Shown here in pieces: positions 1 to 4,506 of a stretch of 4,506 nucleotides of DNA (its first letter is position 1; every line of letters starts with the position of its first letter). The notes below the pieces were generated by a model that saw nothing but the letters and a program-made list of their open reading frames with translations, did not search any database and had not been told where the DNA came from. The translations under genes and the position numbers were made by a program. This DNA comes from a virus (lineage: Duplodnaviria; Heunggongvirae; Uroviricota; Caudoviricetes): the IMG/VR virus record IMGVR_UViG_2534681657_000006, one strand, 5' to 3'.

Positions 1-224
1 ATGTGCTGCTGTGCTGTTTTGGTTCATCGGTGCCGAATCATGCCGCCATTTACTGCGGCGACGGTGAGCTGCTGCACCATATTCCTGAACAACTGAGTAA
101 ACGAGAGAGGTATACCGACAAATGGCAGCGACGCACACACTCCCTCTGGCGTCACCGGGCATGGCACGCATCTGCCTTTACGGGGATTTACAACGATTTG
201 GCCGCCGCATCGACCTTCGTGTGA
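1..224 (+). CDS. K: Tail assembly protein K, C-terminal part (5' end lies outside the window; first full codon at 3, stop TGA 222-224)
   Basis: Open frame runs from the window edge to TGA at 222-224. The translation (...AAIYCGDGELLHHIPEQLSKRERYTDKWQRRTHSLWRHRAWHASAFTGIYNDLAAASTFV) matches my recollection of the C-terminus of lambda gpK, and the gene sits immediately upstream of and overlapping gene I as in lambda. The M at position 3 in the ORF track is a GTG internal codon, not a real start. Confidence 0.8.
   Translation, partial: VLLCCFGSSVPNHAAIYCGDGELLHHIPEQLSKRERYTDKWQRRTHSLWRHRAWHASAFTGIYNDLAAASTFV
103..110 (+). promoter_or_regulatory. Putative Shine-Dalgarno for gene I (GAGAGAGG), 11 nt upstream of the ATG at 122
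   Basis: Purine-rich GAGAGAGG at 103-110 inside the 3' end of K, followed by ATG at 122. The spacer is on the long side. Confidence 0.4.
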
Positions 225-769
225 AAACGGGGTCTGAAGCCATCCGGGCGCTGGCCATGCAGATCCCGGCGTTTCGTCAGAAACTGAATGACGGCTGGTA
301 TCAGGTGCGCATTGCCGGGCGTGATGCAGGTGAAACCGAATTGTCTGCCCGTCTTAATGAGCCGCTGGCAAATGGTGCCGTGATCCACATCGTGCCGCGT
401 CTGGCGGGAGCTAAAAGTGGCGGTGTGTTTCAGGTGGTGCTGGGGGCGGCGCTGATTGCGGTGGCATGGTGGAACCCTGTGGGCTGGCTGGGTGCCGCGG
501 CTGTATCGGGCATGTATGCGGCAGGGGCCAGTATGATCCTGGGCGGAGTGGCGCAGATGCTGGCACCGAAAGCCAGGACGTCCACGGCAGCAAGTACAGA
601 TAACGGCAAACAGAACACCTATTTCTCCTCACTGGATAACATGGTTGCCCAGGGCAATGTTCTGCCTGTTCTGTACGGTGAAATGCGCGTGGGGTCACGC
701 GTGGTTTCTCAGGAGATCAGCACGGCAGACGAAGGGGATGGTGGTCAGGTTGTGGTGATTGGTCGCTGA
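122..769 (+). CDS. I: Tail assembly protein I (215 aa)
   Basis: Complete ORF ATG 122 to TGA 767-769. N-terminus MAATHTLPLASPGMARICLYGDLQRFGRRIDLRVKTGSEAIRALA and C-terminus DNGKQNTYFSSLDNMVAQGNVLPVLYGEMRVGSRVVSQEISTADEGDGGQVVVIGR match my recollection of lambda gpI. It has a central Gly/Ala-rich hydrophobic segment. The start lies inside the 3' end of K in a different frame (103-nt overlap), as in lambda. Confidence 0.9.
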   Translation: MAATHTLPLASPGMARICLYGDLQRFGRRIDLRVKTGSEAIRALAMQIPAFRQKLNDGWYQVRIAGRDAGETELSARLNEPLANGAVIHIVPRLAGAKSGGVFQVVLGAALIAVAWWNPVGWLGAAAVSGMYAAGASMILGGVAQMLAPKARTSTAASTDNGKQNTYFSSLDNMVAQGNVLPVLYGEMRVGSRVVSQEISTADEGDGGQVVVIGR

Positions 770-787
770 TGCAAAATGTTTTATGTG

Positions 788-815
788 AAACCGCCTCCGG
801 GCGGTTTTGTCGTTT
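788..815 (+). terminator. I-J intergenic GC-rich hairpin with interrupted T-tract (possible weak terminator, attenuator or RNA-stability element)
   Basis: AAACCGCC (788-795) and GGCGGTTT (800-807) are exact reverse complements around the loop TCCG, followed by TTTTGTCGTTT. The T-tract is interrupted, so this is not a canonical strong terminator. Confidence 0.3.
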
Positions 816-817
816 AT

Positions 818-821
818 GGAG
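818..821 (+). promoter_or_regulatory. Shine-Dalgarno for J (GGAG), 8 nt upstream of the ATG at 830
   Basis: GGAG at 818-821 with ATG at 830-832; spacing is typical. Confidence 0.6.
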
Positions 822-829
822 CATGACGA

Positions 830-1900
830 ATGGGTAAAGGCAGCAGTAAGGGGCATACCCCGCGCGAAGCAAAGGACAACCTGAAGTCCACGCAGTTGCT
901 GAGTGTGATCGATGCCATCAGCGAAGGGCCGGTTGAAGGTCCGGTGGATGGATTAAAAAGCGTGCTGCTGAACAGTACACCGGTGCTGGACAGTGAGGGG
1001 AATACCAACATCTCCGGTGTCACGGTGGTGTTCCGGGCAGGTGAGCAGGAGCAGACACCGCCGGAGGGATTTGAATCCTCCGGCTCCGAGACGGTGCTGG
1101 GTACGGAAGTGAAATATGACACGCCGATCACCCGGACCATCACGTCGGCAAACATCGACCGTCTGCGCTTTACCTTCGGTGTGCAGGCACTGGTGGAAAC
1201 CACCTCAAAGGGGGACAGGAATCCGTCGGAAGTCCGCCTGCTGGTTCAGATACAACGTAACGGTGGCTGGGTGACGGAAAAAGACATCACCATTAAGGGC
1301 AAAACCACTTCACAGTATCTGGCCTCGGTGGTGGTGGATAACCTGCCGCCGCGCCCGTTTAATATCCGGATGCGCAGGATGACGCCGGACAGCACCACAG
1401 ACCAGCTGCAGAACAAAACGCTCTGGTCGTCATACACCGAAATTATCGATGTGAAACAGTGCTACCCGAACACGGCACTGGTCGGCGTGCAGGTGGACTC
1501 GGAGCAGTTCGGCAGCCAGCAGGTGAGCCGTAATTATCATCTGCGCGGGCGTATTCTGCAGGTGCCGTCGAACTATAACCCGCAGACGCGGCAATACAGC
1601 GGTATCTGGGACGGAACGTTTAAGCCAGCATACAGCAACAACATGGCCTGGTGTCTGTGGGATATGCTGACCCATCCGCGCTACGGCATGGGGAAACGTC
1701 TTGGTGCGGTGGATGTGGATAAATGGGCGCTGTATCTTATCGGCCAGTACTGCGACCAGTCAGTGCCGGACGGCTTTGGCGGCACGGAGCCGCGCATCAC
1801 CTGTAATGCCTGGCTGACCACCAGCGTAAGGCGTGGGATGTGCTCAGTGATTTCTGCTCTGCGATGCGCTGTATGCCGGTATGGAACGGGCAGACGCTGA
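830..1900 (+). CDS. J: J segment 1 (frame 2); J-like translation ends near 1822, and the last 25 codons before the stop at 1900 are out-of-frame readthrough
   Basis: ORF-track ORF with an SD-supported ATG. The J-like sequence is read through ...RITCNAWLTT, then becomes SVRRGMCSVISALRCAVCRYGTGRR. Confidence 0.6.
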   Translation: MGKGSSKGHTPREAKDNLKSTQLLSVIDAISEGPVEGPVDGLKSVLLNSTPVLDSEGNTNISGVTVVFRAGEQEQTPPEGFESSGSETVLGTEVKYDTPITRTITSANIDRLRFTFGVQALVETTSKGDRNPSEVRLLVQIQRNGGWVTEKDITIKGKTTSQYLASVVVDNLPPRPFNIRMRRMTPDSTTDQLQNKTLWSSYTEIIDVKQCYPNTALVGVQVDSEQFGSQQVSRNYHLRGRILQVPSNYNPQTRQYSGIWDGTFKPAYSNNMAWCLWDMLTHPRYGMGKRLGAVDVDKWALYLIGQYCDQSVPDGFGGTEPRITCNAWLTTSVRRGMCSVISALRCAVCRYGTGRR

Positions 1901-2454
1901 CGTTCGTGCAGGACCGACCGTCGGATAAGGTGTGGACCTATAACCGCAGTAATGTGGTGATGCCGGATGATGGTGCGCCGTTCCGCTACAGCTTCAGCGC
2001 CCTGAAGGACCGCCATAATGCCGTTGAGGTGAACTGGATTGACCCGAATAACGGCTGGGAGACGGCGACAGAGCTTGTTGAAGATACGCAGGCCATTGCC
2101 CGTTACGGTCGTAACGTCACGAAGATGGATGCCTTTGGCTGTACCAGCCGGGGGCAGGCACACCGCGCCGGGCTGTGGCTGATTAAAACGGAACTGCTGG
2201 AAACGCAGACCGTGGACTTCAGCGTGGGTGCTGAAGGGCTTCGCCATGTACCGGGCGATGTCATTGAAATCTGCGATGATGACTATGCCGGTATCCGCAC
2301 CGGTGGGCGCGTGCTGGCGGTGAACAGCCAGACCCGGACGCTGACGCTCGACCGTGAAATCACGCTGCCATCCTCCGGTACCACGCTGATAAGCCTGGTT
2401 GACGGAAGTGGAATCCGGTCAGCGTGGAGGTTCAGTCCGTCACCGACGGCGTGA
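1840..2454 (+). CDS. J: J segment 2 (frame 1); J-like reading extends upstream to about 1822 (QRKAWD precedes the nominal GTG at 1840) and ends near 2412
   Basis: The frame 1 translation QRKAWDVLSDFCSAMRCMPVWNGQTLTFVQDRPSDK... continues the J protein with no SD or start of its own. The nominal start is an internal GTG. Confidence 0.55.
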   Translation: MLSDFCSAMRCMPVWNGQTLTFVQDRPSDKVWTYNRSNVVMPDDGAPFRYSFSALKDRHNAVEVNWIDPNNGWETATELVEDTQAIARYGRNVTKMDAFGCTSRGQAHRAGLWLIKTELLETQTVDFSVGAEGLRHVPGDVIEICDDDYAGIRTGGRVLAVNSQTRTLTLDREITLPSSGTTLISLVDGSGIRSAWRFSPSPTA

Positions 2455-2666
2455 AGGTGAAAGTGAGCCGTGTTCCTGACGGCGTTGCTGAATACAGCGT
2501 GTGGGGGCTGAAGCTGCCGACGCTGCGCCAGCGCCTGTTCCGCTGCGTGAGTATCCGTGAGAACGACGACGGCACGTATGCCATCACCGCCGTGCAGCAT
2601 GTACCGGAAAAAGAGCCATCGTGGATAACGGGGCGCACTTTGACGGCGACCAGAGCGGCACGGTGA
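2424..2666 (+). CDS. J: J segment 3 (frame 3); J-like reading from about 2412 (NPVSVEVQ...) to about 2615
   Basis: Frame 3 encodes [68 protein letters not shown], continuous with the J sequence. The nominal start is an internal GTG. Confidence 0.55.
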
Positions 2667-4306
2667 ATGGTGTCACGCCGCCAGCGGTGCAGCACCTGAC
2701 CGCCGAAGTCACCGCAGACAGCGGGGAGTATCAGGTGCTGGCGCGCTGGGACACGCCGAAGGTGGTGAAGGGCGTGAGCTTCATGCTTCGCCTGACCGTG
2801 GCAGCGGATGACGGCAGTGAGCGGCTGGTCAGCACGGCCCGGACGGCGGAAACCACATACCGCTTCACACAACTGGCGCTGGGGAACTACAGGCTGACAG
2901 TCCGGGCAGTAAATGCGTGGGGGCAGCAGGGCGATCCGGCATCGGTATCGTTCCGGATTGCCGCACCGGCAGCGCCGTCGCAGATTGAGCTGACACCGGG
3001 GTATTTTCAGATAACCGCCACGCCGCATCTTGCGGTTTATGATCCGACGGTACAGTTTGAGTTCTGGTTCTCGGAAAAGCGGATTGCGGATATCAGGCAG
3101 GTTGAAACCGCAGCCCGCTATCTTGGCTCGGCGCTGTACTGGATAGCTGCCAGTATCAATATCAAACCGGGCCATGATTATTATTTTTACGTTCGCAGTG
3201 TGAACACCGTTGGCAAATCGGCATTCGTGGAGGCTGTTGGTCAGCCGAGTGATGACGCATCCGGCTATCTGGATTTTTTCAAAGGCGAGATAGGGAAAAC
3301 CCATCTGGCTCAGGAGCTGTGGACGCAGATTGATAACGGTCAGCTTGCGCCTGACCTGGCTGAAATCAGGACGTCCATTACGGATGTCAGCAATGAAATC
3401 ACGCAGACCGTCAATAAGAAACTGGAAGACCAGAGTGCGGCAATTCAGCAGATACAGAAGGTTCAGGTTGATACAAATAATAACCTGAACAGCATGTGGG
3501 CTGTGAAGCTGCAGCAGATGCAGGACGGACGCCTTTATATCGCGGGTATTGGTGCCGGTATTGAGAACACCCCTGACGGCATGCAGAGTCAGGTGCTGCT
3601 GGCGGCAGACAGGATTGCGATGATTAATCCTGCGAATGGCAACACAAAGCCGATGTTTGTTGGGCAGGGCGATCAGATATTCATGAACGACGTGTTCCTG
3701 AAACGCCTGACGGCTCCCACCATTACCAGCGGCGGTAATCCTCCGGTATTTTCCCTGACACCGGACGGGTGGCTGACGGCGAAAAATGCCGATATCAGCG
3801 GTAACGTGAATGCGAACTCCGGGACGCTCAACAACGTCACGATTAACGAGAACTGTCGGGTTCTGGGAAAACTGTCCGCCAACCAGATTGAAGGCGATCT
3901 CGTTAAAACAGTGGGCAAAGCTTTCCCCCGGGACTCCCGTGCACCGGAACGGTGGCCATCAGGGACCATCACCGTCAGGGTTTATGACGATCAGCCGTTT
4001 GACCGGCAGATTGTTATTCCGGCGGTGGCATTCAGCGGCGCTAAACATGAGAGGGAGAATAACGATATTTATTCGTCATGCCGCCTGATAGTACGGAAAA
4101 ACGGTGCTGAAATTTATAACCGTACCGCGCTGGATAATACGCTGATTTACAGTGGTGTTATTGATATGCCAGCTGGTCGCGGCCACATGACGCTGGAGTT
4201 TTCGGTGTCATCATGGCTGGTAAATGACTGGTATCCCACAGCAAGTATCAGCGATTTGCTGGTTGTGGTGATGAAGAAAGCCACCGCAGGCATCAGTATC
4301 AGCTGA
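2621..4306 (+). CDS. J: J segment 4 (frame 2, same frame as segment 1); J-like reading from about 2615 ([11 protein letters not shown]...) to stop at 4306; contains FN3-like repeats and the distal putative receptor-binding region
   Basis: Longest uninterrupted ORF (561 aa). Two segments, [63 protein letters not shown] and [26 protein letters not shown]...[23 protein letters not shown], look like fibronectin-type-III-like beta-sandwich repeats as reported for J-type central fibres. The nominal start is an internal GTG. Confidence 0.6.
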
Positions 4307-4325
4307 ATTTTATAACCCATATACG

Positions 4326-4352
4326 GGCGCCAGAAATGGCGCCTTTTTTATT
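4326..4352 (+). terminator. Rho-independent terminator downstream of J
   Basis: Perfect 7-bp GC-rich stem GGCGCCA (4326-4332) and TGGCGCC (4337-4343) around a GAAA tetraloop, immediately followed by TTTTTTATT (4344-4352). It starts 20 nt after the J stop. Confidence 0.7.
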
Positions 4353-4362
4353 GCAGAAAAGC

Positions 4363-4368
4363 GAGAGG
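4363..4368 (+). promoter_or_regulatory. Shine-Dalgarno for lom-like gene (GAGAGG), 5 nt upstream of the ATG at 4374
   Basis: GAGAGG at 4363-4368 with ATG at 4374-4376. Confidence 0.55.
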
Positions 4369-4373
4369 TAATT

Positions 4374-4506
4374 ATGCGTAAAGTTTGTGCAGCCATTTTG
4401 TCCGCAGCCATCTGTCTGGCCGTATCCGGTGCGCCTGCATGGGCGTCTGAGCAGCAGGCCACACTGAGCGCAGGGTATCTTCATGCCCGTACGAACGCTC
4501 CCGGCA
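4374..4506 (+). CDS. lom: Lom-like outer-membrane protein (Ail/Lom/PagC family), N-terminal part with signal peptide; 3' end lies outside the window
   Basis: ATG 4374 with SD, open to the window end. The translation MRKVCAAILSAAICLAVSGAPAWA|SEQQATLSAGYLHARTNAPG has a classic Sec signal peptide (basic n-region, hydrophobic core, A-W-A cleavage motif). Position directly downstream of J behind its own terminator is the lambda lom position. Only 44 codons are visible, so family assignment rests mostly on synteny. Confidence 0.7.
   Translation, partial: MRKVCAAILSAAICLAVSGAPAWASEQQATLSAGYLHARTNAPG

Follow-up and report, generated by a model that had tools for sequence, protein, structure and literature searches.

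The closest described counterpart of the locus studied here is lambda gpJ (TipJ family), the tail-tip attachment and host-specificity protein. The window, by which we mean the whole 4,506-nt stretch of DNA that was analysed, holds a tail-tip module of the lambda type. It shares with lambda the gene order K-I-J-lom and, once J is repaired as described below, the gpJ domain set, and its J DNA matches annotated gpJ genes at 98.4% identity; it differs from lambda gpJ in that the J of the window, as deposited, consists of four open reading frames (ORFs). The features on which the following account draws are these:

3-224, + strand: 3′ end of K (C40/NlpC-P60 peptidase), an ORF whose homologous region is annotated 'C40 family peptidase'; the contig begins within K.

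122-769, + strand: tail assembly protein I, intact, 215 aa (Pfam PF06805, Lambda_tail_I).

830-4306, + strand: J (tail-tip attachment / host-specificity), split into four ORFs by three 1-nt deletions.

830-1900, 1840-2454, 2424-2666 and 2621-4306, + strand: the J ORFs as deposited, from the ORF list.

1820-1823, + strand: break 1, a base missing between C1821 and C1822, so that CAC[G/A]CAG has become CACCAG; a singleton base.

2409-2413, + strand: break 2, a base missing between G2411 and A2412, so that GTGG[C/T/G]AAT has become GTGGAAT; a singleton base.

2613-2617, + strand: break 3, GAGCC where intact genes read GAGGCC or GAAGCC; one base lost.

4325-4344, + strand: terminator-like hairpin and T-run 3′ of J, from a consensus scan only.

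4374-4506, + strand: 5′ part of lom (Ail/Lom outer-membrane protein), from PF06316 and the annotation of relatives; the contig stops inside lom.

The I protein of the window also adjoins intact J genes on other contigs. The stretch 786-812 between I and J combines an inverted repeat with a T-rich tract on its 3′ side (AACCGCCTCCGGGCGGTTTTGTCGTTT) and is absent from the terminator scan list.

The window is the entire contig APXG01000018.1 (4,506 bp) of draft assembly GCA_000356445.2, from E. coli 2860650. Strain 2860650 is an ETEC isolate of ST443 from Bangladesh with the CS5+CS6 profile and reads deposited under SRR446794 (supplementary table, Sahl et al. 2017, PMC5469772); the reads are 100-bp Illumina HiSeq 2000 reads at high coverage, and the assembler was Celera Assembler (PMC5469772). 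Proteins deposited from the split J include ENB03682, ENB03684 and ENB03685. In the protein collection searched, each of the four J fragments is found on one contig only, although the contig record gives three samples for APXG01000018.1.

A sequence-only reading of the window had placed three frame breaks in J, the third at about 2615. Translation confirms how it described this third break: frame 3 reads ...AVQHVPEKE and then runs to a stop at 2664-2666, frame 2 is open from 2615 through the J stop at 4306, and the sequence has a single G, G2615, that is common to GAG (2613-2615) and GCC (2615-2617). The same reading took all three breaks to be contractions of short homopolymers, which is wrong, given that the base lost is a singleton at both break 1 and break 2. 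Break 3 amounts to a contraction of GG to G only in comparison with homologues that carry GAGGCC. Of the 83 J homologues compared, 46 have GAGGCC at this site and 35 have GAAGCC, and thus the lost base corresponds to a third codon position that varies between G and A. All 80 J genes examined from viral contigs are in frame through this site.

The closest intact J region, from ETEC 602354, spans 4,509 nt against the 4,506 nt of the window and is 98.4% identical to it. Relative to this region the window lacks exactly three bases, one after 1821, one after 2411 and one at 2614/2615. With the three bases put back, J reads as 1,159 uninterrupted codons, and its product has the full gpJ set of Pfam domains (FNIII-A_GpJ, Phage-tail_3, Ig_J, Ig_J_second, Phage_Tail_Tip and Ig_GpJ_C).

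J is commonly present more than once in the same cell, with a median of three J places per complete E. coli genome. Co-resident copies were compared in E1779, a relative of 2860650 that serves as a PacBio reference and has the same CS5+CS6 profile (PMC8085198). The copies compared thus all come from E1779, not from 2860650, and comprise two chromosomal copies, c1 and c2, and one on a 46-kb circular element; two further J-like places in the E1779 chromosome lie outside this three-copy comparison. The chromosomal pair is located in NZ_LR883006.1, at 2864915-2868394 and 3292910-3296407, and the copy on the element in NZ_LR883007.1, at 2332-5723. E1779 has at least three J copies that are 94-99% alike over window positions 751-3000 (1-6% difference), a copy number known from E1779 and not from 2860650. 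At each of the three positions where the window has lost a base, the E1779 copies disagree with one another: they carry G/A/A at break 1, C/T/G at break 2 and G/A/G at break 3. Variable columns account for 2.7% of 830-2836 when c1 is compared with the 46-kb copy, and for about 5% when all three copies are considered. From these fractions, the probability that three of three deletions would fall on variable sites by chance is P = 2e-5 to 5e-4 (1.2e-4 with the sites variable among all three copies). The 46-kb element is NZ_LR883007.1 ('plasmid 2' of E1779, 46,243 bp, circular). It is a lambdoid phage genome and not a plasmid, and every one of its tape measure, K, J, lom and tail-fibre genes carries a frameshift annotation, suggesting either PacBio consensus errors or a defective element.

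Comparison with the E1779 copies divides J and its downstream sequence into two zones:

830-2836, + strand: consensus-like (collapsed) zone, with sequence intermediate between co-resident J copies.

2837-4506, + strand: clean zone, with no mismatch to the c1-type chromosomal prophage of 602354.

In the first zone, 97 sites vary among the E1779 copies, and the window has the majority (2-of-3) allele at 84 of them and the minority allele at the other 13. Only two window bases in this zone are unlike all three copies; in the real E1779 copies, alleles are private at about 20 to 40 of those variable sites. A search of complete E. coli genomes covered 15,357 J places, and the best of them matches window 830-2836 at 98.4%. 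In the second zone, the window is 0.0% different from E1779 c1 from 3001 on. Beyond about 3000, where the other E1779 copies are about 1-58% different from c1 in each 250-nt segment, the window tracks c1 alone; the consensus-like zone coincides with the zone in which the copies differ by only 1-6%. Two properties of a collapsed repeat are thus present in the window: its sequence is a consensus or mosaic rather than one natural haplotype, and its errors, three deletions out of three, lie at sites where the copies differ.

The K/I segment of the window (1-829) is c1-like, about 3% different from c1, and contains several bases found in none of the three E1779 copies, which points to at least one further source sequence besides these copies. 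Contigs that encode an identical I protein (L090-L093) were considered as representatives of a natural haplotype carrying real mutations, and this candidate was rejected: their DNA differs by about 3%, and each break site that they cover is intact.

A third property of a collapsed repeat, recurrence of the defect within the same pipeline, is provided by contig AQDJ01000090.1 from strain 2865200 (ST155, CS23), an unrelated strain sequenced in the same project. This too is a short K-I-J-lom contig. Its J (L089, 879-4344) is missing 32 bases in 23 events, all of them in the 5′ 2.1 kb and with no insertions, and splits into at least five ORFs. Fourteen of the 32 deleted bases fall where the E1779 copies differ from one another (P about 1e-10), and the contig shares the exact GAG-CC deletion of break 3 (L089, 2633-2652). 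Another contig, AQAB01000066.1 (35.7 kb; GCA_000356805.2), belongs to the draft series of the same institute, the Institute for Genome Sciences. It ends just past I, about 45 bases into J, and has several bases missing in K relative to the window, a pattern consistent with breaks in assembly and errors in the consensus at this repeat.

Taken together, these sequence comparisons make it very likely that the break at 2615 arose as a consensus artefact over a collapsed repeat in the draft assembly and is not a biological feature. Because the deletions sit exactly at inter-copy differences and two of them lie outside homopolymers, they point to consensus calling over a collapsed repeat rather than to slippage, whether cellular or during sequencing. 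The sequence-only reading had offered polymerase slippage or homopolymer sequencing error as the cause; its suspicion of an error rather than biology holds, whereas neither of the mechanisms it proposed does. As to how the artefact may have arisen, strain 2860650 very probably contains several lambdoid prophages whose J genes would be about 97% identical over the first ~2 kb, judging by the set of copies in E1779. An overlap-based assembler would pool the 100-bp reads of those copies into one contig, and the pooled consensus would take the majority base at most variable sites. At three of the about 100 variable sites a gap would have been emitted instead, giving rise to the missing bases at 1821/1822, 2411/2412 and 2614/2615. 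After about 3000, the stronger divergence between copies would leave reads of one copy only, and with them clean sequence. The disagreement may have been turned into a gap by the way in which the Celera consensus step handles gaps.

The alternative that survives best, which we nevertheless consider unlikely, is that 2860650 harbours a decaying prophage whose J truly lost three bases and is now a pseudogene. Prophage tail genes often decay. Frameshifted gpJ genes are annotated by RefSeq in some complete genomes, including E. coli 04-00955, which carries the break-3 deletion, and the J on the 46-kb element of E1779 is another so annotated. However, compared with 79 distinct J 5′ regions, the window shows two private deletions and no private substitutions. 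Repaired J differs from E1779 c1 at 43 nt, and 36 of these 43 differences are at third codon positions. Three indels that come with no private substitutions and with such a third-position bias do not form a pattern of neutral decay. The other marks of a decaying pseudogene, namely further signs of relaxed constraint and lesions common to close relatives, were not found for this J. Moreover, J is intact in complete genomes with identical 3′ sequence, including 602354 and E1779 (c1). That all three indels fall on inter-copy variable sites, in a haplotype that mixes co-resident copies finely or follows their majority, and that 32 such deletions occur in the unrelated strain 2865200 of the same pipeline, likewise argues against genuine loss in 2860650.

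A related proposal, which we regard as improbable to a greater degree, is that GAG GCC following the A5 run is a real hotspot at which recurrent deletions inactivate the tail tips of lambdoid prophages. The GAG-CC deletion is present in three independent assemblies, those of the window, of 2865200 and of 04-00955, and its occurrence in the last of these, a complete genome (NZ_CP035498.1; L002, 4254-7731) whose gpJ is annotated 'frameshifted' by RefSeq, makes a real recurrent mutation possible. The gpJ of 04-00955 resembles that of the window in the base missing at GAG-CC and in its annotation as frameshifted. In an alignment of 4,505 positions, however, 313 (about 7%) differ between the two; breaks 1 and 2 are absent from the gpJ of 04-00955, which carries a C5-to-C4 deletion of its own opposite window position 3925. 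In complete E. coli genomes, 10,058 places match an 81-mer over break 3. Among the matches listed, the sole exact one is this single record, 04-00955, and the other listed matches are 98.8% identical over 82 bases, that is, one base longer. A 34-mer across break 3 had no exact match in the species-representative genome collection.

Slimmer still are the chances that the sequencer under-called GG as G at break 3. This break can be read as a GG-to-G change beside an A5 run. Illumina HiSeq, though, is a platform that is not prone to dropping one base of GG (dinucleotide under-calls), and a homopolymer read error at GG is thus not expected in these high-coverage HiSeq reads. Breaks 1 and 2 lie outside homopolymers, and an association of deletions with paralogue-variable sites would not be expected from read errors. 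The combination that identifies a homopolymer error, a deleted base within a run and a run-length-prone platform, is not what the three breaks present.

Least credible of all, and for programmed frameshifting at break 3 excluded in practice, is a recoding event, either −1 ribosomal frameshifting or transcriptional slippage at GGAAAAAGAG, that would restore J: the A5 run just upstream (2608-2612) could in principle let tRNA-Lys slip back one base, but three separate shifts would be required and no slippery sequence is present at breaks 1 and 2, the 80 viral-contig J genes are all in frame at break 3, the only exact 81-mer match among those listed has its gpJ annotated as frameshifted and the other listed matches are one base longer, the window has no match to any Rfam family, recoding is not known from lambda J, and the conserved frame change, slippery site and stimulatory element that together would identify recoding were not found.

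With a consensus artefact over a collapsed repeat as the preferred explanation, the site at 2615 offers no basis for conclusions on slippage, pseudogenisation or recoding. It does call for caution over data quality: short, stand-alone contigs of older overlap-based short-read assemblies that cover multi-copy prophage genes can hold false frameshifts, with the result that a single gene is deposited as several 'proteins' and pseudogene counts are inflated.

Compared with the collapsed-repeat errors of short-read drafts in the multi-copy lambdoid prophage regions of E. coli, the window has the same form, a short stand-alone contig over a multi-copy segment with a sequence intermediate between the copies. 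It also has the same distribution of errors, which are placed at inter-copy differences and recur in another genome from the same pipeline. The difference lies in the kind of error: collapsed repeats usually give rise to chimeric SNP calls, whereas in the window, and 32 times in AQDJ01000090.1, they appear as one-base deletions.
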